Positions 1 to 14,249 of a DNA stretch of 28,792 bases are shown here, one piece after another (within the stretch, counting starts at the first letter, position 1; each line of letters opens with the position of its first letter). Below the pieces are notes generated by a model. It worked only from the letters and a program-made list of their open reading frames with translations, ran no database searches and was not told where the DNA came from. The stretch is from a virus. Lineage: Duplodnaviria > Heunggongvirae > Uroviricota > Caudoviricetes. The position numbers and the translations under genes are program-made. The stretch lies in the IMG/VR virus record IMGVR_UViG_3300020046_004077. One strand, 5' to 3'.

Positions 1-2
1 CT

Positions 3-3000
3 GAACTTAGAATTAGAAGCTAGTTCAGCTATAAACTCTTTTGAGTTTGTTAGACCGTACTCACCTTGTACATCAGGAAGTTTAGTTGCTTCATTGAAGA
101 TCCTATCCAGATTTCTTACAAAGTTGATCTGTTCTTCTCCTTCCGGGTTCTGTATAACAGCTACAGAGAATGCGTGGTTTATTTCGTGTGTAAGAACGTG
201 GCGTAATTCCTTTTCAGATTCTACCGCTCCATTTCTATTAATTAAGATTTCACTTGCACCACTTTCTCCTTTGTAAATGAATTTACCAAAGTTGTTAGTC
301 CCAAGTGTACTATCCAGAATAATAGGTGTATTGATCTTACTTGAGTTCTTTAACAGAATTTCAAGATTTCTCAACGTTTCGGGATTGCTTTCGTCAAGCA
401 TCAACCGTTTGATCACAGAAGATGTTGCTTCTTTGTCAGTAGGTAAATAGAATCTCAGTCTTGAATCTATCTCTGAATTCACCCGACCAAATAAAGGACT
501 ACGCACAGTCAAGTTGTCCCCCCCTAGTCCCCAAGGGTCCGGATTGAGGTTCAATTTCCTGTTGCCTGGTGCCTTACTCTGACTACGTCCATCAGCAGAT
601 ACTTCATAGAAGTTGTTTCTTGACCCAAGAGGTTGTACTTCTCTAAAGTGAGACAGGTCTTTTGGATCAGCCTCATACAGTCTGTAATCTCCTAATTCAC
701 GATCATTAAATCTTATGAATTTAGGTAGTACTTCAGCTTCACTGTATTCGTCAGATAAGTAGAATTCAGTTATATGTCTTGTTCCGGAAGTTATCTTGGC
801 GTTCTTAATCATATTAGAGAAGAACCCTTTATCTTTCTGGAACTTACCGTATAGTTCAGGGAATCTGTCAAGATTCTTGAAGTTATGACGAATAAAGTTA
901 ACTACAGCAGCTTCCTGATCTATGTTCATAGAAGGAGCAGCTTTAATTATATTCTTCCATGCGTTATCTAATCCTGATTCTATCCAGAAACTAACCGGAA
1001 TAAGTTCAAACATGGATTTAGCATTAAAGTTAAACCCTGTTGTCATAATCGCGTAACGTATAAGGTCATGAGCCAACCCACGTACTTCTATGTTAGGGTG
1101 GTTAAGCATTTCATACCATCCGTTAGTTACTTCAGTCTTATTTGTATTGTTATCCGTGTTACGAATACCTACAATCTGTACTTGATCAACTCCTGTTTTG
1201 CTTGTCTCAAGATTTTTAATAAGTTCGTTGTTCTTGAGAACAGGGTGCTTATCTACCATTTGATCAATATACTTCCAGATACTCTTTTCTGCACTGAATA
1301 ATGACCAACGGTTTCTGTAATCTTCCTGTCCTTTTTGAGGATGGATAGCAATCAAGGTACGTGAGAGGAGACTATCTCCTTCCAAGTTATAGTAATCAAT
1401 AAACTGGTTAAGTTGTTTGATTAGACCTTTATCAGTAATGCTTGCTTGTCCTATATTCTCAGCATAAGCTGTTCTTACTTGTGAGTAAGCCATGCTGGTA
1501 GAAGGGAAGAATTGTCCAGTATAGGTAAGTGCATCTTGTATTCCGTGCTTAAAGAAGCTGGCAAGTCTCTTACCTACAGCTGGTGTTGTTGCTGTATCAA
1601 ATACTCTTGAGTCGATATATACTAAAGCTTCAGGATTAGTTACTTCATTTTTCTGTTGTAACATAGCTTCTAAGGCTTCTATTCCTGTAGCATCCTGGAA
1701 AGTATCTATTGAAAGTACATTGTTTATCTTTCCTAATTGCCCTGCAATTATGTTTGTTTTAATGAATTGATTTAACACCATAGCATCATGAGCAGGGTTT
1801 GCGTCTATAGCAGACTTTAACCCTTCTTTTAACGCCTCGGTACTAACTGTTTCATCTCTATCTAATATGTTGTACTGATCTTTAATAGCAGGATAGGACT
1901 CGAACAGCTTTTCAGTAGCCTTACGACTATCCTGACCTTCCTGCTTGTAGAATTTAGTCCATTCCCTTACTACAGGCTGCATGAAGAAGTCTGTAATAAC
2001 AGGTAATGGTACCCCAAAGTCAATCATTGTATGGAAACTAGCCATTGTTCCAGTAACTACACCTAAATAAGCCAGCAAGGGGTTTTTAGCCGCATCAAGA
2101 GCTGCTTGTTGACTTTCAGCATGGTTCTCTGAAATTAGTGTTCCTGAAGCGTCAAAGGTACGCCCAAGCTCATTGAACTTATACTTTTGGTCAATTGTAA
2201 TACCTATTTCAACATTTACACCAATAAAGTCTTTAATTGTCTGTAGTACTGTGTGACCAGTATTAAATCTGGACGCAATACCAATCTCAGCTTTACCGTC
2301 CTTGTTACGAATCTCAGCTTTAACATCAGCTTGTGTTGAAGCTACACTGGAACTTGTACCTAAGTCTATAAGCCCCATTTCCTGATATTCTTTAAATTTA
2401 GCTTCAAGTGTAGGGCTGGCAAGAGGAGTAAGTAATTCTTTTGTATGAGCTTTGTTTGTTAAGATTCCCCAGTAGATATTGAATAACTTAGTATCCACAC
2501 TCTCGCTATCAATCTTTCCTTCCTTATCTGTAACTCTGCGTAGTAATTGTGACTTATCAACGTCAAAGTCAAGACCTTGTTGAATAGTTAATTCTCCCGG
2601 AATAATAACTACGTTGTTGAGGTTACTTGGTACAATCTTCACTACCCTTACAGGAATCATTGAACTCTTGTTGGAAGTAGGGATACGGTATAGAATGAAT
2701 TGTAGAGCTTTCTTCTGGTTCTCTGTTAATTTATCCCAAATAATACGTCCATTAGGTAGTATATTATCACCGTAACGTAATCCTATCTGACCTAAATTGT
2801 CAAGGGGTAAAGCTATCTCAGCTTCAGTTAATTCACCTTCGTTGTTTGTGACAAATTTTAATTCGTCATCATATCCAACTCCAAAGTCTGCAAGGTTAAT
2901 AGCAGAATATCCTGGGCTGTCTTGTCCAAGAACATTCTTTTTCCATAAGTTAGTCAAGATAGACTGGAACTTCTGTCCAAATGCAGGGAAGGAAATAGGA

Positions 3001-6000
3001 ACAGCAAAGTCGATTTCGTTATTAACTGCTCTTACTAATTCAAGTACATCCTGGTAGTTTTCATTCAAGTCTCTTGACATCAGCTCCTGTTCCAGAGTTG
3101 TTTTGAGTTTAAACAGCTGTTCTTTTCTCTTAGCTTTATCGTCAGATAATTTGAATTCCTTTCCTACTCCAAGTCGTTTTTGTAAATTACTTGCCGAGGC
3201 TTGTATCTTTTCTTCCCATAATTCGTTGTACTTCTCTTTTAAAGTACTACCAAGCATAGATGTACTTCCTACTTTGTACATAGTCTTGTCGTCTATGTTA
3301 CCAAGTATGAGTTTGTGGAACTGAGTACCTTTAATATCAGTCTTCTTCTTGTCAGGAATAAGTTGCGGGAACCTGAAGTCAGACAAGTTAACTACCCTTT
3401 TCTGCCAGTCCTGTACCGGCTGACTAATGTCATTAATTACTCCATATAACCCTACTTTAGTAGTATCTTCTGCTGACATGATACCAATGTTATTAGCTTT
3501 CATGAAAGCAAGAAGGTCTCTGAATCCAGAATGTATTTTAGTTAATTCTGGTGTAATTGGGGTAATAGAGTCTTTGAACTGTTCCTTTATGATCATAGTA
3601 GATCCATCAGGAAGAGTTATCTTTCTGTTGTTAAATTGGAATGGCTTGAAAGGTTGTAGTAATATCTTAGCAGCAGCACTACGCAGTCTTTTAGCTTGTT
3701 CCTCAGTAATTAATTCTTTATCTAATAATTGTCTTGTTGCATACCGTACAGTGATACCTTTGCTCCAAGCTAATTTGTAAAGACGTTCATGGTCCTTACT
3801 CCACTGTCCAAGACTTTCTGCAAGTACCTTGTAACTATCTATGTCCATTAAGGATTGAGCATCAGTTTTATTAACTGATTGATACTTTTCTGCAATACTC
3901 TTATCTCCAGCTAACTCAGCTAATGAATTCAGATATTCAGGAGTATTTACTTTCATCTGTTTAGCGTAAATACCTCTCGTTAAGGTTACCGGAGTTTCAC
4001 TGTAACCTTTAATACCAGGAGTTACAGTCTGATAAGCACGCTTGAAATAGTCATCAGGGCTTTTATAGAATGCAATGTCTCCCATCAGTACCTTGGAAAC
4101 TTCTAGTCTCCAAGCTAAATCGTTGTAGAAAAACTCCTCCAGGAATGCAGACAAGCTCTTTCTGTCAAGTATCTGAGTTGGTATTCTCTCACTTGTTACC
4201 TCACCTTTTTCATTAATGTTAATGATGTCGTTTTCTGCAAGGAAGCTTTTAAAAGCTGAGAATTCAGACTCAATAAAGTCCTCAATTATCTTCTCTGCTG
4301 TTTGTAGAGCTTTAGTGTATTCTTCTGTACTTATATCTCCGCTTGAAAGGGATTCTTTCAATTTAGGTACAGTATTTAGTCCAGGAATATAGATGAATCT
4401 TGATGAGTTCTTTAAGTTTGCTATATCTTTTGGTAATGCATTATCCTCATTAGCTGAGTTTTGGAACTTAGCTAATCTTTGGATACGTACTACCTCACTG
4501 TTCATTGTGCCTTTAAGAACAGTAAACAAGAAGTCTTTTGCTGCTTGAGTACCTTTCTTCTTAGGCAGGCTTATAATAGGTTGTTTAGTCTTATCTGCAG
4601 GTGTTCCTGTAAAGAAATATCCTTCACTTCCCCCATTATTGTAGAAGGTAGTGAATCTCATTATCATAGACTCAATCTCAGTCCTTTTCTCAAACGCTTT
4701 AGGATTATCCTCATTACGTCTGATTACAGAAGTAAAATTAAGGTCAATCTTGTCAGAGCTATTTTTGATAGCTTGTAAGAATTGATTATCTGAATAGAAT
4801 GAATCCTGTTCATAATAACTTACAACATCTTGTGGATTATTCTTGATGTTGTTGGCTAATTCTGTAAGGGCTGAAGGCCAGTTAATAGGGTTTTCCAGGT
4901 TACCTTCGTCATTTCTATAAGCTCCTCCACGGGAATCATCTATGTAAACTGAGCTTGTTTTAGCAAGGTTAGTTAAAAGACTTGAACCTTCAAAAGGATC
5001 CTTTCCTTCCTTAGCATTTAATAACAGTTGTTCTAATGTTCTGCTTCTTGTACCGAAGAACATGTTTTCAACTTTTCTATACTTAAAACCAGGATTAGGC
5101 AAAGCATCAAGCTCTTTCCACATTTGGTTAGGTACAGAAACTCCAAGCTCAGAAAGAATAGAGTTAAATTCATCTTTAACTTCAGTGTAAGGCAAATTAG
5201 CTTTCTTCTGTTTAGCGATGTAGAACTTATTCTTAAATGCCTCCAGTCTTGCAAATATAGCAGCAGCTTTCTTTGTATTTACAGTACCGTCTGTATCTAC
5301 TATTTTCTTACGAACTCCTTCCTCTCTCCATCTGTTATGGAGTACACGATCACTACTTGCACGGTCTGAGTCTATTGTTTTAGCAAAGTTCTCAATTCTG
5401 TGGGTAGCAAAAGGATTCTCAGGATCTATATCTGAAGGGTCATTCTTATCAATAGGAACTTTCTTAGTTCCGTGAAGAACTGTCTTTTTATAATAACCGT
5501 CACGTTTGTACTTAGCCGCAAACTCATTGAACAATTGTATGTTACCCTTGTTCTTTTCGTTCATTAAGGCATCCAGTACAACCTTAGCAATAGCATCGTT
5601 TTCAGCTAACTCTGTAAGTTTAGTAATAGGATTACTTGCATCTCTTAACTTAAGAGCCAGGTTTCCATCTACTCTCCTAAAGTCAAGGAATTTAGTTGTA
5701 CCAAAGACAGTTTGCTTATTCTCCCCGGTAGGCATTCCTGATTGATCCAATACTGGTTCAGGGATGCTTGCAAGGAATAGTTTAACCCTGTTACTCATTG
5801 ATTCACTAGGATTAATCAACGTATGATCAATGTCATACAGTCTTTCAGCCTCGTCCTGTGACTTTAGTTCTGCATTATCTACGCTTTCAGCAAACTCTTC
5901 TTGAGAGTTAGTGTAGGTTGAACCATCTTTTAGTCTAACACTAAATCCATATCTGCTTAAGTCTTTTAATACTTTAGTTCTGAATCCGTCTTCAGGTAAT

Positions 6001-9000
6001 CCTGTAGCTGTTGTAACATCTTCAAATGATCCAACAAAGCTCTCTTCTCCTGCAGAAGGAGTGCCTATTCCCATAGCGAGATAGCTATAATACCTGGCTT
6101 GGTCAACCTTACTTCTTTCTTTACTTCCTTTTATTCTTTCAAAGTCTTTCTCAAAGTTAGACTTGATTGAACCGAGGATAGCATCGAGGTTTTTAGGGTT
6201 AGTTAAGTATTCCCCAAGACTTACCTCTTCTTGTCTTGCCAGTTCCCCACTTAGTCTAATGACTTCAGAAGTCCAAGCTACAATACTTTCTTGTTGTTGT
6301 TTGATGTATCTGAAACCAGGTAGTTTCTTATAACGAGGTTCTGCAGGATCTAATTGCAGTTTAGCTTTCTCTTGAATAGCTTTTTGCTGTTCCAGAGACA
6401 AGTTTAGATTGTCGAGTTGAGCAAATAACTTTTCTACCGGAGTTTTAAATCCAAGTAGATTCTTGATCATCAGCCAAAGCTTCTTGAAGAAGTTACGTAC
6501 TGGTTCAGCAGGCTTATATTTGCCATCACTAAGTTTGTATTTCTCAAACTCCTCAGCAAGTTTCTCTTCTCCAATCTTATTGATCAACTCACTTTGCTTT
6601 TTTGTAACAAGTCCATTGCTTGGATCAGCAAAGAAGTGTAAAGCTTCGTGATAAGCTGTACCTTCAGGAGCAAATTCAGCTATTGTAACTAGCCCATTGT
6701 AGTATTGACCAAACGCAGCTATTCCATTCTTGGAAATGAACCTATCTACATTTTGAGCTACTTCAATAGCTTGCTCACCAATGTTATCTTTGAACCAAGT
6801 TAGTTCTTTCTCAGTAAGTAATTTAAAGCCTTGTTCCGTAGCTGGCTTAAGCTTAGCATCAGGACCGAAGAAATCGTCTAAAGCTTTATCTGGAGTAGTA
6901 TCTATTTTTCTCCCCTTTAAGTTAGCTGCTAAATTGTGTTCAAAGATCTTAATGATTATAGGATCTGTTACTTCTTTGTTTTTGTAGTCAAACCATTTAC
7001 CATTTTCTTTGTAGAACTGCCCTTCACTTGTATTTACACTATACTTTTCTCTTCTTATTTCAACATCTAGAGATTCAATTCTATCTCTTAAATCCTTCTC
7101 TGTGCCTATTATGTTTGTAATAACAGGTTCATCATTCTCCTCTACTAGAGTAAATTGAGATTCTTCAATGTTTGGATCAAGATATAGAGCCACTTGGTTA
7201 AAAGAGTAGCTGGAATCTTCACCAACTCCCATAGTTTTAGAACCTGGAAGATTAGTCTGCACAGATGAAGTTTCAACCAAATAATCATAGTACGTATTAT
7301 AAGCCTTGTTTGTAACAGGGTCTGTATATCTTATTTCTGAGTTTAAATTAGTTACTGGTACATTCTTGAACTGTTTAGAAAGCAGTTCTTTGAATTTAGT
7401 TGTTATTTGTCCTTGTCCTGCATGGTTATAAAATACTTCTGATTTATTACCATCAGGAGTCATCACTCTAAACGCATAAGGTTTAGCAGCTAACATTTCT
7501 CCTACCTGTTTAGAGTCAACAATAACCCATACAGGCTGAGTTCCTTTAACAGGAATAAGTACATCTGCTGTATTTGCAGTTGTATTAACAATGTGTATTC
7601 TTGATCTATTAAGTTCAAGCACATCAGGCTTTTTATCTCCTTTTGTAGAGTATACTCCAGCAGAGTGTTGAGGTAAGTAAACTACATTATTTAGAGTAGT
7701 AAAGTCTTTTGAAACCAGTAATTGAGCTATGTTATTATTTAACCAATCAATTTCAGTTTGGTTAAGGTTTCTGGGCTCAAGTCCAATAATACGCTTACTT
7801 CCGTCAGGGGCTGTTCTGAATGTAATTACCTTACCTCTGAGTTTAGCTAAGTCATTTGATCTTGGAACAATCTGAGTATTGTTTACCTGATCTATTACAT
7901 TCTTGGTAATACCTTTCATCGCTCCAATATTTGGAGTTGTAATATTACCATTGAAATCTATGAATCCAAGAATAGGCTTGTGTGCAGTATTCTCAAACTT
8001 CCACTGTTCTTCGTTTACTTGTACGTAATCACTCTTTAAAATATCTAAAGAGTTTAGGGTAGAAGACTTACGGATAGTACCTACATTCTTACTAGCTATA
8101 CGGGTTTTTACTTCCCCTCTTGCTATTACTTCATTACGTAAGTAAGTTATAACTCTTTGATCTGCCAGCCTTGGATTATCAGCAGAAGGTAGTTGTTTAA
8201 TAGGACGTGGGTTTCCTTCTACGTAAACATTAATTACATAGTTTTCTACTTTATCCGGTTTAAATCCTGGAGTTAATGTCCAAGGAAAATCATTCTCAAG
8301 CTTTAAAATAACCTGTTGTCCAGCAAGAACCTTTGGGGTGTTTGCAAGTAACTGTCCTGTTTCAGTATCTACAGCAAAGATCTTGTCTGCGGTAGCGGTT
8401 TCACCTGTAATATTGTTAGTATAAACTGTAGCTGAACCATCTTCATTTACTTCTTTTAACCAAGCTGGAACAGTTGTTCTTTGTCTTGATTCTTCAGCTT
8501 TCTTGTCTTTCTCAGCTTGCTGTGTGACTACAGGAGGAACTTCTTTTTTCTGTTCAATTTCTATACGTTCAAGAATAGAGGATACCTGTTCTTTAGTCAA
8601 TCCTCCCCAACGGGTAGCTTGTTCAGGAGTAATTCCTCCTGCAAAAGGTATTTCAATAGGAGCAGAATCGTCTACTGGAGGAGCTTCCATTTCAGGAGCA
8701 TACTCTGACTCTGTAGGAGGTTCAACTAATACTTCTTCACTACTTGGTATTGGAGCTGGAGGTTCTTCTACAAACTTCTTTGTTTCCTCTTGGTTAGCTG
8801 CTTTTTTTGAATCAACTAAAGCTTGGTGCTTTTGAGCTAAAGCTGTCTTTAGTGCTTCATCTGTAGTATTAGCTGCAGCTTGCAGAATTTCTTCTTGCTT
8901 AGCATCAGGATTATTTAGAACAGCTTTAGCTTGTTCATTTACTTTTCTTGTTTCAGCTTCTTTCCTTGCTTTAGCTATTCCTTCAGGAGTAGTTAACTCA

Positions 9001-10781
9001 GCAAGGTTCTTTTTTACGGCAGCTTGTTTCTCTTTAGTTGAAACTAATTGAAAGGTTTTAGAGAATAGATCGTTATCCCTACTAGTTGTAAGTGCTTCGT
9101 TGAGATTAGGAAATCCTAACTCTCCAGACATCTTTAACTGGTCATAAGCTTTTTGTATCTCCGCAACTTTAGGTTGGAATTGATTATTTGTTGAGGCAAG
9201 TTTTTTATACGCCTCGAGGTTGGCTTGAGTTTGCTTAAGGTTAACTAACTCGCTGGGAAGCTCTTTGTTGTTGACTAATTCTTGTTCGATCTCACGAAGT
9301 TCATTTGTTAACGCGTTATCCAGTCTACCTAACTGGCGCTGTTCGAGCTTTGTTGCAAGAACTCGTTCATGTACATCAGCAGGTAATTTACTGGCTTTTA
9401 ACTTAGCTTGTTCGTCAGCAATAAAGTCTATATCCTGGGTATAATTATCCAAGTTCTGTCTAACTTCAGGGGTTAAGTTTTTTGAAGTTTTTAACGCTTC
9501 TAACTCCTGTTTGTAGTTTGCAAGTTTTCCTTCTTTTAATTTTTGAAATGCTGTTTGAGCAAACTGTACATCATCTATTGTCTGGGAAGTAGCTGTATCT
9601 CCAACATAGTTAGCTCTTTCTTTTTTAAGACCTAGATCAACTATGTTTTTTACTTGTTTAGATACAATATCAGCTACCCGGCTAGAACCTTTTTCAGCAG
9701 CTCTGCCTAACGGTCCAGCGGCTGTGAATACTCCACCCCCAAAGGCCCCAAGTAATGTTGAAGCTTTAAATTCAGGGTCGTTGATGTATTCGTACAAGCG
9801 TTGATTGAATCCTTTACCGAAGTAATCGGTTTCAGTATCCATTGCTGCACGGTAAGCTTCTTCACCTACTATGAACTGCCCTGCTTCTTCTGCTCCTTCA
9901 CTAGCTGTCTGTGTAGCTATCTCTGCAATACTCTTTCCAATACCCCCTTTAGCTGCGGTAGAAAACCCTTTCAACATACTAGAATATTGCAAGAAGTCTT
10001 GCATAGCGAATATCCAGTTAGTGTTCCATACGTTAGAAGCCTGTTGACCAGCACGCATTCTAGCAACTTCAGGACTTATTCCTTTATTTAGCAGATCTGT
10101 GTAAGCCCGTTCATAAACTGCAGAAGCTTCCATTGTGGATTCTGCATACCTTGAAGCTAGTGTTGCTCCAACTCCTTGAGCTACTTTAGTCGCTCCTTCT
10201 CCCATTTTAAGAGCTCTTGCACCTTTCCCTACTAACCCAGCAACTCCGGCTGCAGGAAGCATAAGAGATAGTGCAGACCCTATTGTATCTGGAGTATGTG
10301 AGGCCCACCAAGTAGCGTCTCCAGGAGCAAATCCTTCACGGCTTTCTGCAGTTTGAAATACTTTTAATGAGCTATCTTGAGCTATACTTTCTTTAGCTTG
10401 TTTCATTGCGTCTGCAAGCCAGTTTGTATACTCTGCTTCATCTCCTTTTAACTTGTCAATCATTTGCTCTACGTCTAACAGATAAGAGCCTGCTTCTACA
10501 GTCCCAAGGATAGCGTTAGGAATAGCTTGTCCAATAGTCTTTCCTATTAGTTCAAGGCCACTTTGCTGTCCAGCCATGTAGTTTTCCAGATCAGCTTGGG
10601 CAATATAATTCTTAGATAGTCTTGGACTTTCTGTAGGTTGTTGAGTGGGATTTGGTAAACTTGGATATTGTTGACCAAATCCTGGGGCTAATGCTTTCTT
10701 TTTCTTTGGATCCCCTGGGTCATCTCCTCCTATGGGAGCTAAAGGTTTTAATTCTTCTCCAAATCCTGGTGCTAATTCCAT
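3..10781 (-). CDS. Giant virion RNA polymerase polyprotein (crAss-like two-barrel vRNAP, phi14:2 gp66 type) with two zincin domains; >=3593 aa, 3' end beyond the window
   Basis: The ATG at 10781 overlaps the upstream TAA (TAATG) and begins MELAPGFGEELKP. Hand translation found no stop down to base 3, and the ORF track reports no terminated ORF in this frame. In-frame motifs: GDIAFYKSPDDYFKR (~4040-4083), NKTDAQ (3855-3872), YRIPT (2676-2690), catalytic GLDFDVDK (DFDVDK 2553-2570, first Asp = residue 2738), LDAAKNP (~2079-2099), HEALH (6636-6650), HEINH (174-188). Confidence 0.92.
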   Translation of the reverse strand, partial: MELAPGFGEELKPLAPIGGDDPGDPKKKKALAPGFGQQYPSLPNPTQQPTESPRLSKNYIAQADLENYMAGQQSGLELIGKTIGQAIPNAILGTVEAGSYLLDVEQMIDKLKGDEAEYTNWLADAMKQAKESIAQDSSLKVFQTAESREGFAPGDATWWASHTPDTIGSALSLMLPAAGVAGLVGKGARALKMGEGATKVAQGVGATLASRYAESTMEASAVYERAYTDLLNKGISPEVARMRAGQQASNVWNTNWIFAMQDFLQYSSMLKGFSTAAKGGIGKSIAEIATQTASEGAEEAGQFIVGEEAYRAAMDTETDYFGKGFNQRLYEYINDPEFKASTLLGAFGGGVFTAAGPLGRAAEKGSSRVADIVSKQVKNIVDLGLKKERANYVGDTATSQTIDDVQFAQTAFQKLKEGKLANYKQELEALKTSKNLTPEVRQNLDNYTQDIDFIADEQAKLKASKLPADVHERVLATKLEQRQLGRLDNALTNELREIEQELVNNKELPSELVNLKQTQANLEAYKKLASTNNQFQPKVAEIQKAYDQLKMSGELGFPNLNEALTTSRDNDLFSKTFQLVSTKEKQAAVKKNLAELTTPEGIAKARKEAETRKVNEQAKAVLNNPDAKQEEILQAAANTTDEALKTALAQKHQALVDSKKAANQEETKKFVEEPPAPIPSSEEVLVEPPTESEYAPEMEAPPVDDSAPIEIPFAGGITPEQATRWGGLTKEQVSSILERIEIEQKKEVPPVVTQQAEKDKKAEESRQRTTVPAWLKEVNEDGSATVYTNNITGETATADKIFAVDTETGQLLANTPKVLAGQQVILKLENDFPWTLTPGFKPDKVENYVINVYVEGNPRPIKQLPSADNPRLADQRVITYLRNEVIARGEVKTRIASKNVGTIRKSSTLNSLDILKSDYVQVNEEQWKFENTAHKPILGFIDFNGNITTPNIGAMKGITKNVIDQVNNTQIVPRSNDLAKLRGKVITFRTAPDGSKRIIGLEPRNLNQTEIDWLNNNIAQLLVSKDFTTLNNVVYLPQHSAGVYSTKGDKKPDVLELNRSRIHIVNTTANTADVLIPVKGTQPVWVIVDSKQVGEMLAAKPYAFRVMTPDGNKSEVFYNHAGQGQITTKFKELLSKQFKNVPVTNLNSEIRYTDPVTNKAYNTYYDYLVETSSVQTNLPGSKTMGVGEDSSYSFNQVALYLDPNIEESQFTLVEENDEPVITNIIGTEKDLRDRIESLDVEIRREKYSVNTSEGQFYKENGKWFDYKNKEVTDPIIIKIFEHNLAANLKGRKIDTTPDKALDDFFGPDAKLKPATEQGFKLLTEKELTWFKDNIGEQAIEVAQNVDRFISKNGIAAFGQYYNGLVTIAEFAPEGTAYHEALHFFADPSNGLVTKKQSELINKIGEEKLAEEFEKYKLSDGKYKPAEPVRNFFKKLWLMIKNLLGFKTPVEKLFAQLDNLNLSLEQQKAIQEKAKLQLDPAEPRYKKLPGFRYIKQQQESIVAWTSEVIRLSGELARQEEVSLGEYLTNPKNLDAILGSIKSNFEKDFERIKGSKERSKVDQARYYSYLAMGIGTPSAGEESFVGSFEDVTTATGLPEDGFRTKVLKDLSRYGFSVRLKDGSTYTNSQEEFAESVDNAELKSQDEAERLYDIDHTLINPSESMSNRVKLFLASIPEPVLDQSGMPTGENKQTVFGTTKFLDFRRVDGNLALKLRDASNPITKLTELAENDAIAKVVLDALMNEKNKGNIQLFNEFAAKYKRDGYYKKTVLHGTKKVPIDKNDPSDIDPENPFATHRIENFAKTIDSDRASSDRVLHNRWREEGVRKKIVDTDGTVNTKKAAAIFARLEAFKNKFYIAKQKKANLPYTEVKDEFNSILSELGVSVPNQMWKELDALPNPGFKYRKVENMFFGTRSRTLEQLLLNAKEGKDPFEGSSLLTNLAKTSSVYIDDSRGGAYRNDEGNLENPINWPSALTELANNIKNNPQDVVSYYEQDSFYSDNQFLQAIKNSSDKIDLNFTSVIRRNEDNPKAFEKRTEIESMIMRFTTFYNNGGSEGYFFTGTPADKTKQPIISLPKKKGTQAAKDFLFTVLKGTMNSEVVRIQRLAKFQNSANEDNALPKDIANLKNSSRFIYIPGLNTVPKLKESLSSGDISTEEYTKALQTAEKIIEDFIESEFSAFKSFLAENDIININEKGEVTSERIPTQILDRKSLSAFLEEFFYNDLAWRLEVSKVLMGDIAFYKSPDDYFKRAYQTVTPGIKGYSETPVTLTRGIYAKQMKVNTPEYLNSLAELAGDKSIAEKYQSVNKTDAQSLMDIDSYKVLAESLGQWSKDHERLYKLAWSKGITVRYATRQLLDKELITEEQAKRLRSAAAKILLQPFKPFQFNNRKITLPDGSTMIIKEQFKDSITPITPELTKIHSGFRDLLAFMKANNIGIMSAEDTTKVGLYGVINDISQPVQDWQKRVVNLSDFRFPQLIPDKKKTDIKGTQFHKLILGNIDDKTMYKVGSTSMLGSTLKEKYNELWEEKIQASASNLQKRLGVGKEFKLSDDKAKRKEQLFKLKTTLEQELMSRDLNENYQDVLELVRAVNNEIDFAVPISFPAFGQKFQSILTNLWKKNVLGQDSPGYSAINLADFGVGYDDELKFVTNNEGELTEAEIALPLDNLGQIGLRYGDNILPNGRIIWDKLTENQKKALQFILYRIPTSNKSSMIPVRVVKIVPSNLNNVVIIPGELTIQQGLDFDVDKSQLLRRVTDKEGKIDSESVDTKLFNIYWGILTNKAHTKELLTPLASPTLEAKFKEYQEMGLIDLGTSSSVASTQADVKAEIRNKDGKAEIGIASRFNTGHTVLQTIKDFIGVNVEIGITIDQKYKFNELGRTFDASGTLISENHAESQQAALDAAKNPLLAYLGVVTGTMASFHTMIDFGVPLPVITDFFMQPVVREWTKFYKQEGQDSRKATEKLFESYPAIKDQYNILDRDETVSTEALKEGLKSAIDANPAHDAMVLNQFIKTNIIAGQLGKINNVLSIDTFQDATGIEALEAMLQQKNEVTNPEALVYIDSRVFDTATTPAVGKRLASFFKHGIQDALTYTGQFFPSTSMAYSQVRTAYAENIGQASITDKGLIKQLNQFIDYYNLEGDSLLSRTLIAIHPQKGQEDYRNRWSLFSAEKSIWKYIDQMVDKHPVLKNNELIKNLETSKTGVDQVQIVGIRNTDNNTNKTEVTNGWYEMLNHPNIEVRGLAHDLIRYAIMTTGFNFNAKSMFELIPVSFWIESGLDNAWKNIIKAAPSMNIDQEAAVVNFIRHNFKNLDRFPELYGKFQKDKGFFSNMIKNAKITSGTRHITEFYLSDEYSEAEVLPKFIRFNDRELGDYRLYEADPKDLSHFREVQPLGSRNNFYEVSADGRSQSKAPGNRKLNLNPDPWGLGGDNLTVRSPLFGRVNSEIDSRLRFYLPTDKEATSSVIKRLMLDESNPETLRNLEILLKNSSKINTPIILDSTLGTNNFGKFIYKGESGASEILINRNGAVESEKELRHVLTHEINHAFSVAVIQNPEGEEQINFVRNLDRIFNEATKLPDVQGEYGLTNSKEFIAELASNSKF

Positions 10782-12574
10782 TATTTCAATTTAAGTTGTA
10801 CTCCTTGTTCTGCTAATGTTGAAGCTAAGTGGCGTGGAGAAGAGAATAACATTGTTTTTCCATTTATCTCAGCTTCTATAAGTGTAGTTACGTTTGCCCA
10901 CTGTTCTTGGGTTAAGCCGTAGTCTTGTTGTGCTTTTTCTAACTGTTTACCGTACAGTTCTCTTGCCTTAATACCAGGAGCTAATTCTGTTAGTTGTCCG
11001 GGTCTTGTGTTTACAGTAGTATAAATTTTGTTCTCGTTTATGTCAACAGCATCTGTGTAGAATCCTCCCGGTAATTGACTTGCTAAGAACCTACGAGCAT
11101 TACCATCCTTATCTACAGCTACTACTGCAAAAGGTTTAACAAACTTCTCATTTCCTGCAGGGTTAGTTGTATAGTGGTTTTTTGGATCATAAACTGACTC
11201 TACCATAAACTTGCTTGGATCTCCTCCAGTAAGCTCTTTAAATTCATCAGTCATTTCTCCATCTTTACCTATTGCTGCGACTACTTCTCCTGTTTGAGGA
11301 TCCATATACTCCCGAAGAGCAAACTGAGCTTGTAGTTCTTTATTGAACTCAGTAGCTTGTTTAGCGTCAAAAGGAATAACCCAAGGATTACTTACACGTT
11401 GTTTGATGAGATCTGTGTAATCTGTAATCTTAGCGTTGGGACCGAATATTTCTTTTGCTGTATTCAGGTCTTTTACATATTGAGGGTGTTGTACGTCATC
11501 TTTACCTTTAGTAGAGCTTGTTACAATATCTGCACCCTTTCCAAATCTGTAGATAGGAGCTGTACCTGTAACTACTCCCTTTGTTTTATCTACTCCAGTA
11601 GATTCATTGTAAGGAATTTCACTTTCTACAATCTGAGCCGGGGCTTGAGTAGGTAATTGCATAGCAGTAGTTTTACCTGAACCACCATCATCACTTCCAG
11701 CCCATGCTGGAGTAGGTTTGTAATCTCTACTTAAATTCGTAAAGGTTCTGAGCAATCCCTGGTTATAGAATTCCTTCTTCAATTCATCATCAGACTTTCC
11801 TAAGATATTCTTTTGCTGTTTATAAGCTGGAGTTAGCTTATAACTTGACCAAGCAGAACCTAATAGTTTATCAATCTTTCCCTGACTGATCCCAGCTTTG
11901 GTAAGAGATTCAAAGAATAGAGGTAAATCGAGTTGACCGTTTTGGTATGCTCCTGGTAATAGTTTGGAGATTGTAGTATCTCCTGCTGCCCTGATTGCTG
12001 TTTCTATAGAATCAGGATTAACTGTTTTCCAGATGTTTTCCATGTGGGGAACAGGATCTTCATAAGGTTCTACTGTGCTTTGGTAAGGAGTAGCATAAAC
12101 TGAAGTAAGCTGACCAGTTTCCGGATCAATCACATTTGAGTTCATAATTGCTTCTCTTACTCCCGGTTTACGAAGAGGTTGTTTACCTTGAGCAAGGAGG
12201 GCTTGCTCTAACTTAATTTCTTCGTTTACTCTTTCGGCTTGTTGGAGTCCTGTGAGGATTCCTTGATCACTTTGTAATGTAGTCGCAAGAGCGTTTATTC
12301 TAGCAGTGGAGTTTTCTCCTCCTCCTGCAGCCATCTCTTTCAAGGCTTGATCAATAGCGGTGATGTGGGTGTCTACGTAGCTCTTTGCCCCAGGAAGCAT
12401 CTTAGACTTCATCTGGTTAGCTAGAATCTCTAGTTGACTAGCATTGGCTAAGTTCTGATAGTGTCTCTGGGATAGAGTATCTGCAGTTTGTCTGATCTGA
12501 TCCAGAGGAACCCCTGCATATTGAGGGATATATTGACCAGAATCTAAGTTGAAATCGTTGTAGGATAAAGGCAT
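10781..12574 (-). CDS. Putative ejection/cargo (internal virion) protein, 597 aa
   Basis: Long ORF with a Q/A-rich helical N-terminal half and an N-terminal YIPQYAGVP motif of the kind I recall from crAss-like cargo proteins. It lies between the first cargo gene and the vRNAP and is coupled to the vRNAP by TAATG. Function is inferred from synteny. Confidence 0.62.
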   Translation of the reverse strand: MPLSYNDFNLDSGQYIPQYAGVPLDQIRQTADTLSQRHYQNLANASQLEILANQMKSKMLPGAKSYVDTHITAIDQALKEMAAGGGENSTARINALATTLQSDQGILTGLQQAERVNEEIKLEQALLAQGKQPLRKPGVREAIMNSNVIDPETGQLTSVYATPYQSTVEPYEDPVPHMENIWKTVNPDSIETAIRAAGDTTISKLLPGAYQNGQLDLPLFFESLTKAGISQGKIDKLLGSAWSSYKLTPAYKQQKNILGKSDDELKKEFYNQGLLRTFTNLSRDYKPTPAWAGSDDGGSGKTTAMQLPTQAPAQIVESEIPYNESTGVDKTKGVVTGTAPIYRFGKGADIVTSSTKGKDDVQHPQYVKDLNTAKEIFGPNAKITDYTDLIKQRVSNPWVIPFDAKQATEFNKELQAQFALREYMDPQTGEVVAAIGKDGEMTDEFKELTGGDPSKFMVESVYDPKNHYTTNPAGNEKFVKPFAVVAVDKDGNARRFLASQLPGGFYTDAVDINENKIYTTVNTRPGQLTELAPGIKARELYGKQLEKAQQDYGLTQEQWANVTTLIEAEINGKTMLFSSPRHLASTLAEQGVQLKLK

Positions 12575-12650: not shown

Positions 12651-14249
12651 TTATTTCTTAATATTGAGTTTTCCACCTTTACGCTTCCCTTGCTTGGAGT
12701 ATTTCTCCAAAGCTGCCATAGCTTCAGGGCTGAGGCGGGAAAGGACATTAGAGTCCCCGTAGGCTTGTTTCATAATTTCAAGAGCTTCAGAATCACGCTG
12801 CATCTGGTTACGTTCCCGTCCAATCTGCAGTATTTTACCTGATAAGTTAGATACGTTTTCAGAGGATAATTGAAGTTTCTTGTTCTGGAAGTTTACAACA
12901 CTGTCCTGGAAGTCATTAATTCTTCCCGCATTTCTAGCTTTCACTCCTTGGTTAAGACCAGCTTGTTGATTCTGTATAGAAGTATTAATCTGGTTAGTTT
13001 GACCGTAGACTTGATTCTGACCGGCTACCCGTTTAGCCATCAGGTTTCCAATAGAAGAAGCTAAATTACTACCTTGGCTAGTGTTGGAAGTAATAACTTC
13101 CTTGGCTTGATTATAAGCCCTATTCACATCAGCTAATTGAGCGTTTGGATTTATCTTTTTCAGTTGTACAGCACTTTCCAGTTGTGGAGCTTTTGGTCCC
13201 TTTAGTCTTTTTTGAAGTAAAGCATTATTCAAGTTTGGTCCAAAAGTAGCTGCAGTTGTAAGTAGAGGTTGCATGTCAAACGGCTTGTTTTGAACCTGTA
13301 CATCAGGTCTTAATGTGTCTATCGTACCGTAGGGATTGTTTTCATCTAATTTTCCTCCCACTGCTTTTGAGGGTTTTTTAGCCTTAGCCATATCTTCTGC
13401 GTCTAATTGTCTAACAACTTGTTTTCTTATCTTCTTGTATGCTTTATCTAAGTATGCTTCCCGATCTACTCCGTAAGGTTCTTTAGTTTGTAATACAGAG
13501 TCCCACTTATTTAGCATTCTTTCAGTATAGTTTCCTGTTGGAGAGTAAGTTGGTTTTTTCTTAGTCTTTGGTCCTGGATCACTCTTTAAGCCCTCCTGGT
13601 AGTCAAATAAGCTATCTAGCTTTTGTCCTATTCTTTCGTTAGATTCAAGAAATCTTGGATTATCACTTTTCATCTTCTCCAGTCTTTTAGCTTCTTTAGC
13701 AATTGAACGACCGGAAGGTAGAGTAAGGTCATCAGAGAATACTCTATTCTCTTTATCTATTATCTCGTTGTTATCTACAAAAGCTGAATCTAATTCAACA
13801 CTGTCTGTAGCATTTGGATTGTTTGCTACAACTTCTACAGCATCTTCTGAAACTGGGTTTAGATCACCTCCCCCAACAAGATTAAGTTTATTCTTTAACT
13901 TACCTCCTTTAGCTAATTGTCTTCCTGAATTAGAAATAAGGTTCTCTTGTAACTGTAGTGTTTGTAGTCCTTTTTGTTCGTCTTTGATCTCAGCGAGTTG
14001 TTCCTGTTCTTTGCGTTTTGCTCTACCTCCAAGTATTCCTCCAAGCAGACCGCCTGCAACAGCTCCTATTGGGCCCAGCGCCAGACCTGCTCCAGCTCCT
14101 TTTAAAGCTCCTCCAATTGCAGCTCCGCCTACTCCTGGTGTATTAGCACCGATCAGGCTTCCTGCCAGGAGAGTTCCTTGTTGTAGAGGTTTTCCGTATT
14201 GGTCTAAGAATCCTCCGTCTGCTTTTTTCTTCTTTTTCTTACCTTGCAT
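12651..14249 (-). CDS. Cargo/ejection protein (crAss cargo protein 1-like), 532 aa
   Basis: It has a Gly/Ala-rich hydrophobic segment (residues ~25-76), an ENRVFSDDL...SIAKEAK block resembling the VFSD motif of crAss-like cargo proteins, and a Q/N-rich coiled-coil C-terminus. It directly follows the muzzle gene with an 11-nt overlap. Confidence 0.66.
   Translation of the reverse strand: MQGKKKKKKADGGFLDQYGKPLQQGTLLAGSLIGANTPGVGGAAIGGALKGAGAGLALGPIGAVAGGLLGGILGGRAKRKEQEQLAEIKDEQKGLQTLQLQENLISNSGRQLAKGGKLKNKLNLVGGGDLNPVSEDAVEVVANNPNATDSVELDSAFVDNNEIIDKENRVFSDDLTLPSGRSIAKEAKRLEKMKSDNPRFLESNERIGQKLDSLFDYQEGLKSDPGPKTKKKPTYSPTGNYTERMLNKWDSVLQTKEPYGVDREAYLDKAYKKIRKQVVRQLDAEDMAKAKKPSKAVGGKLDENNPYGTIDTLRPDVQVQNKPFDMQPLLTTAATFGPNLNNALLQKRLKGPKAPQLESAVQLKKINPNAQLADVNRAYNQAKEVITSNTSQGSNLASSIGNLMAKRVAGQNQVYGQTNQINTSIQNQQAGLNQGVKARNAGRINDFQDSVVNFQNKKLQLSSENVSNLSGKILQIGRERNQMQRDSEALEIMKQAYGDSNVLSRLSPEAMAALEKYSKQGKRKGGKLNIKK

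Follow-up and report, generated by a model that had tools for sequence, protein, structure and literature searches.

A giant gene of a crAss-like phage that probably joins a packaged RNA polymerase with two companion cargo proteins

What is encoded by a 10.8-kb stretch of phage DNA over which only short shadow open reading frames (ORFs) are listed? This question is raised by one end of a stretch of 28,792 nucleotides (nt) from the IMG/VR tailed-phage record IMGVR_UViG_3300020046_004077. The whole stretch, here called the window, lies at 39666-68457 in one contig of 92,763 bp. The minus-strand frame over window positions 3..10781 has 3,593 codons without a stop, and a start codon at 10779-10781. 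The base composition predicts stops at 6.9% of codons, so the probability that none occurs over 3,593 codons is about 1e-112. The frame is open under translation table 11, and alternative genetic codes are unnecessary. It runs past window position 1 by 3,096 nt to a stop, giving a protein of 4,625 amino acids (aa). We put a probability of roughly 85% on the reading that this giant gene encodes a packaged and injected crAss-like RNA polymerase (RNAP), joined in one chain with two companion cargo proteins.

An earlier reading of the window, made from the letters alone (the sequence-only reading), had described an uninterrupted minus-strand frame of at least 3593 aa that the ORF track did not show. 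The uninterrupted frame was borne out. Its absence from the track over 1..10781 is genuine but is an artefact of the listing, not biology, because the default settings of the ORF lister drop any frame running into the end of a window. The length holds for the part inside the window, but the full chain is longer and also carries a gp65-type C-terminal module. The start of the gene is correct, since conservation among homologues begins at residue 3-4. The 597-aa gene upstream stops with a TAA whose last base is also the first base of this ATG (TAATG, window 10779-10783); the overlap suggests translational coupling of the two genes.

The polymerase module

The reference for the central module is gp66 of phi14:2, a virion RNAP that has been crystallised (PDB 6VR4; Drobysheva et al., bioRxiv 10.1101/2020.03.07.982082 / Nature 2021). 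A phmmer search of the PDB sequences with the giant protein matched chain A of this entry (E 3.4e-17). The match consists of three colinear stretches, at gp66 residues 858-1005, 1105-1383, and 1480-1711. DFDVD (aa 2738-2742) aligns with 1361-DFDID-1365 of gp66, and YRIPT (aa 2698) aligns with YRIPN; the longer motif GLDFDVDK begins at aa 2736 (window 2553-2576). The catalytic DFDVD is found in all of the relatives P0003-P0041. A profile of 37 family members matches gp66 at E 3.8e-44 and spans gp66 aa 312-2064, and gp50 of crAss001 matches the central module at E 2.2e-74. Furthermore, tblastn with the giant protein finds crAss-like phages only, with 22-23% identity over aa ~2075-2970. By the landmarks given in the literature, the homology to gp66 spans both barrels, the connector, the bridge helix, and the trigger loop, and alignment to the solved structure predicts two double-psi β-barrel folds in the core. 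On this homology, we assign the module as a crAss-type two-barrel virion RNAP. It ends with a conserved (S/N)P(D/N)PW motif, and the polymerase chains of relatives in which the next module is a separate gene end about 30 aa beyond it.

The sequence-only reading had named crAss-type two-barrel motifs, placed the core at about 4150-2000, given gp66 a length of about 2200 aa, and proposed a profile comparison with it. The motif assignment agrees with the structure match and the profile result just given, the gp66-homologous stretch aa 2148-3001 (window 4340-1779) is consistent with the proposed core, and the actual length of gp66 is 2,180 aa.

The whole 4,625-aa protein, including the part outside the window, has zero matches in Pfam and PHROGs, and a search for related loci in viral contigs gave a single weak match, L003, with 44 aa at 45% identity. 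The gene makes up 15% of the phage genome, and what was blank in both databases can now be named with module boundaries (Table 1).

The companion modules and their zincin-like domains

What is the remainder of the chain? The sequence-only reading had attributed the length in excess of gp66 to fused N-terminal membrane-like, coiled-coil, and protease modules. The direct match of the family profile to phi14:2 gp67 is weak but colinear, with a full-sequence E of 4.4 and a domain E of 1.6e-3. Because this match is weak, a profile of aa 1-700 was searched against 1.84 billion cluster representatives. It gave 1,999 matches, comprising giants plus standalone proteins of 1,300-2,000 aa. From this search, gp67 matches 40 of the 137 new N-module representatives colinearly (best E 2e-13), and crAss001 gp47 matches the N-terminal module at E 3.5e-17. 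These matches support the interpretation of the extra N-terminal length as a fused gp67/gp47-type cargo module, which ends in a zincin-like domain. All three parts of the sequence-only description have a counterpart here: a conserved hydrophobic segment, in which L171, L173, and P176 show little or no variation; a coiled-coil-like stretch; and the zincin-like domain, with HEALH at aa 1378 (window 6636-6650) within an invariant HExxH...E pattern. The strongest hydrophobic peak of gp67 lies at the same place, aa 172. The globular part at aa 720-1290 has no match in Pfam or PHROGs and no usable match in the ESM Atlas.

At the other end, BLASTP aligns phi14:2 gp65 with aa 3493-3804 (E 1.5e-16) and 4002-4592 (E 1.9e-21) of the giant protein. 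The 37-member family profile matches gp65 at E 6.9e-49, and crAss001 gp49 matches the C-terminal module at E 3e-55. The second HExxH motif, HEINH at aa 3532 (window 174-188), aligns with HEIMH 245 of gp65, and both proteins have a hydrophobic peak at a similar distance from the C-terminus (130 and 128 aa). We therefore assign the end of the chain, most of it outside the window, as a gp65/gp49-type module that opens with a second, paralogous zincin-like domain.

The HExxH is located on a helix and is followed by a conserved downstream Glu ligand, which is the gluzincin arrangement. The domains are putative peptidases by motif and fold likeness only, and the protease label of the sequence-only reading stands to that extent. 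In the crAss, N4, and polyvalent-protein literature examined, we found no report of peptidase activity for any crAss or N4 homologue. A zincin-like module with an 'LWSR..IR.LLGL' helix is common to the crAss gp65-type proteins (aa 3430-3660 of the giant protein) and to internal virion or ejection proteins of T7-like podophages (PDB 9SFN chain G, 8VB2 chain A). It looks like an ejection-protein-specific domain family, for which we found no name in the literature examined.

The location of the two zincin-like domains beside the junctions raises the question of whether the giant protein is a self-processing polyprotein. The domains would then cut the chain into gp67-like, RNAP, and gp65-like parts, in the capsid or after ejection, and the fused gene would merely be a way to obtain the parts in equimolar amounts. 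We consider this unlikely. Intact HExxH motifs are not enriched in fused compared with split forms, a weak test since detection of the domain leans on the motif. Self-processing is thus unproven, because conservation of the zincin motif is independent of fusion, and this is a caution against the common assumption that zincin domains exist for cutting the fused chain. It is possible, and we offer it tentatively, that the domains are instead parts of the ejection machine. They could act on the envelope, for example, as a peptidase of peptidoglycan or envelope proteins, comparable to the transglycosylase of T7 gp16, or they could be purely structural.

Table 1. Window coordinates of the giant gene, its predicted modules, and the upstream genes.
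Feature	Window position	Strand	Basis or remark
In-window part of giant gene, aa 1-3593 of 4,625	3..10781	-	Open frame; full gene at genome 36569..50446
gp67/gp47-type cargo module (predicted), aa 1-~1490	6312..10781	-	Junction with RNAP module estimated at aa ~1487-1521
Gly/Ala-rich hydrophobic segment, membrane-like, aa 167-185	10227..10283	-	Kyte-Doolittle 1.71
Coiled-coil-like stretch, E/K/Q/L/A-rich, aa ~461-670	8772..9401	-	Composition scan
Globular part of N-module, aa ~720-1290	6912..8624	-	Conserved in 35 relatives
Segment of giant gene	6312..6899	-	End of N-module
RNA polymerase module (gp66/gp50-type, predicted), aa ~1491-3425	507..6311	-	Family profile vs gp66 and gp50
Catalytic core (predicted), aa 2148-3001 = gp66 aa 785-1711	1779..4340	-	Two barrels, connector, bridge-helix, and trigger-loop regions; DFDVD 2556-2570, YRIPT 2676-2690
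Segment of giant gene beyond RNAP module	3..494	-	In-window start of C-terminal part
597-aa gene, Cys-free, position of crAss001 cargo protein 2 (gp46)	10781..12574	-	Stop overlaps giant-gene ATG
532-aa gene, Cys-free, position of crAss001 cargo protein 1 (gp45)	12651..14249	-	Position
Crassvirus muzzle protein, 1,266 aa	14239..18039	-	Pfam crAss_MUZ PF25731 E 2.5e-25; phrog_15100

Fusion, terminal cysteines, and delivery

The arrangement of RNAP and cargo in a single chain is already known for crAss-like phages and is common among the relatives of this protein. The fusion of RNAP with neighbouring cargo proteins into one polyprotein has been recorded in the literature, and papers citing Yutin et al. 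give lengths of up to ~6000 aa for crAss RNAP genes. The sequence-only reading had suggested that ejection apparatus and transcriptase are combined in a single chain. This is how such fusions are generally understood, and the three modules were found here by homology. A word-indexed search limited to long proteins gave 36 close relatives with 38-74% identity in the core. Thirty of these have all of the modules (3,745-5,470 aa), and the other six lack the gp65 module only. Among the N-module representatives, 101 of 137 are giants of 3,000-6,187 aa, and the polymerase is present in 100 of the 101.

Could a lost stop, a frameshift error, or a chimeric assembly have joined two or three separate genes? 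The only point for this is that the genes are separate in the studied phages phi14:2, crAss001, and cr106_1. However, all three modules occur in one chain in 47 relatives from independent assemblies (NCBI, JGI, ENA, and Logan), both module junctions are conserved in sequence, and the nearest relatives, at least 22, are all fused. Furthermore, split relatives have a ~30-aa tail and a ~115-aa head, with cysteines, that are missing where the chain is fused. This is a clean evolutionary fusion and not a read-through. We reject an assembly artefact on the strength of the 47 independent fused relatives and the conserved junctions, and regard it as exceedingly improbable. Logan assemblies of a small number of runs (e.g., SRR29078233 and SRR29078110) are the source of most relatives.

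A phylogeny of the DFDxD core, as the sequence-only reading had proposed, was built from 137 polymerase cores. The giant protein of the window falls within a supported clade that has at least 22 members, all of them fused. The fused or split state of the gp65 module changes at least five times on this tree, compared with about 40 times with shuffled labels. The same three proteins, fused in some phages and split in others, are therefore a natural experiment, in which the gp65-module junction has switched state at least five times.

Cysteine is absent from the 4,625 aa of the giant protein, compared with a share of 0.87% in the remaining proteome (P 2.5e-18). Its frequency over 136 polymerase-bearing giants is 0.031%, and 42% of the cysteines of the giants are among the final ten residues. 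Six relatives have a separate gp65 gene; their polymerase chains finish in P-x-C-S/A-K, for instance P-D-C-S-K, and this is the sole cysteine in five of the six. At the two loci examined (L010:17200-17245 and L011:17255-17295), the next gene is 6-14 nt downstream, and its product starts with M-S/A-C-K, which contains its sole cysteine. In phi14:2 (L002), all four cysteines of 5,398 residues are at abutting ends: the last residue of gp67, residues 3 and 2179 of gp66 (which has 2,180), and residue 3 of gp65. The cysteines of crAss001 gp47, gp50, and gp49 (L012) are likewise at the chain ends, though gp47 is encoded on the other strand. Across these loci, the cysteines are at the C-terminal end of one chain and at residue 3-5 of the next. 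Of 90 polymerase chains that lack the gp65 module, 76 have a cysteine among the last six residues, and of the 47 chains that carry the module, 0 do; the raw Fisher p of 1.7e-24 is inflated by relatedness, as the chains do not represent that many independent events.

The window contains three consecutive cysteine-free genes, of 532, 597, and 4,625 aa, and the flanking structural genes have 3-11 cysteines each. The cysteine-free run presumably marks the ejected set, by analogy with N4 gp52, gp51, and gp50, which are all cysteine-free. In the relative L011, the last residue of the orthologue of the 532-aa protein is its only cysteine ('...NSYC'; L011:2602-4680).

How would the giant protein work? 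By homology, it would be made late and packaged, ejected through the tail in a partly unfolded form, and would then transcribe the early genes. In phi14:2, gp65, gp66, and gp67 are virion proteins, and gp66 transcribes the early genes; in crAss001, five cargo proteins have been seen by mass spectrometry. From the terminal cysteines, we propose that the trio of gp67-type, polymerase, and gp65-type proteins always leaves the capsid as one covalent thread, in that order, and we give this proposal even odds. Where the chains are split, as in phi14:2, crAss001, and most relatives, the lone cysteine at the C-terminal end of one chain would form a disulfide with the lone cysteine at the N-terminal end of the next, and reduction in the cytoplasm would free the three chains. 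In the clade of the window phage, these links would have been turned into peptide bonds and the cysteines lost. The occurrence of terminal cysteines just where the chain is split makes this a simple and testable idea of delivery, one thread as in N4. In the literature examined, we found no mention of head-to-tail disulfide links between RNAP-associated cargo proteins.

Several points weigh against these readings. Packaging, ejection, and polymerase activity are predicted from relatives of only ~23% identity, and the double-psi barrel fold of the core comes from sequence alignment alone. The gp67 assignment is transitive, as the direct similarity is weak, and the 'membrane' and 'coiled-coil' labels derive from simple composition scans. 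The correlation of terminal cysteines with splitting is inflated by kinship. In five independent contrasts, the cysteine changes in the expected direction in three to four and in the opposite direction in none, which is underpowered (p ~0.125). The disulfide links are a proposal from sequence.

Genome setting and known systems

The genome is crAss-like, with the major capsid protein, portal, and large terminase subunit (TerL) in the matching PHROG families. TerL (L006:13170-15308) is only ~30% identical to that of the nearest catalogued Crassvirales, and therefore the phage represents a deep, unclassified crAss-like lineage. The order of muzzle protein, two cargo-position genes, and giant gene is the same in the relatives and in crAss001. 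In L011, a 164-aa gene with three cysteines lies between the two cargo-position genes (L011:4737-5231), and a GIY-YIG gene follows the gp65 gene (L011:21143-21784); these small extra genes are probably mobile endonuclease insertions.

The other fused giant RNAP genes of crAss-like phages represent the same phenomenon, with RNAP and neighbouring cargo proteins in one huge gene. Accessory inserts (His-phosphatase, AAA_33/zeta-like kinase, or DUF7831) occur in relatives, but the window protein contains no such enzyme, and both of its zincin motifs are retained. The phi14:2 genes are separate, with the polymerase (2,180 aa) flanked by g067 (1,797 aa) and g065 (1,421 aa). PhicrAss001 gp47, gp50, and gp49 (Bayfield et al. 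2023, PMC10172136) are also separate proteins, with gp47 encoded on the opposite strand. Its gp49 has lost the HExxH, and the crAss001 chains have terminal cysteines, unlike the window protein.

In the long-tailed Thermus phage P23-45, a two-barrel RNAP is fused to the tape measure (bioRxiv 10.1101/2022.12.01.518664). The podophage ejectosome protein PhiM1 gp48, a counterpart of T7 gp16, has no polymerase (PDB 8VB2; PMC11440229). The polyvalent proteins of phages and conjugative elements (Iyer et al. 2017, PMC5512222) are likewise large, virion-delivered multidomain proteins with interspersed zincin-like domains, and relatives of the window protein similarly add unrelated enzyme modules. However, that survey centred on N4-type polymerases and other effectors, whereas the window polymerase is of the predicted crAss two-barrel type.

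The layout is also like that of N4 gp50 (3,500 aa; PMC13434306). There, one ejected chain holds an N-terminal domain (NTD), a polymerase core, and a C-terminal domain (CTD), which opens with an HExxH subdomain followed by a large helical domain. The window chain has the same order: an NTD-like part is followed by the core, then by an HExxH domain, and finally by a large helical C-terminal part. Like the window protein, gp50 and the co-ejected gp51 and gp52 lack cysteine. Outside the HExxH helix, there is no detectable sequence homology between gp50 and the giant protein. We reject membership in the N4-like (Schitoviridae) virion RNAP family, since the core is not a T7-like single-subunit polymerase and the two belong to different polymerase families. 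The giant protein probably works like the N4 virion RNAP from outside that family. The 2026 N4 paper (PMC13434306) posed as an open question what relation the three crAss proteins have to the NTD, core, and CTD of N4. The thread proposal, if true, bears on this question, as the crAss trio would then correspond directly to the NTD-core-CTD chain of the N4 virion RNAP.
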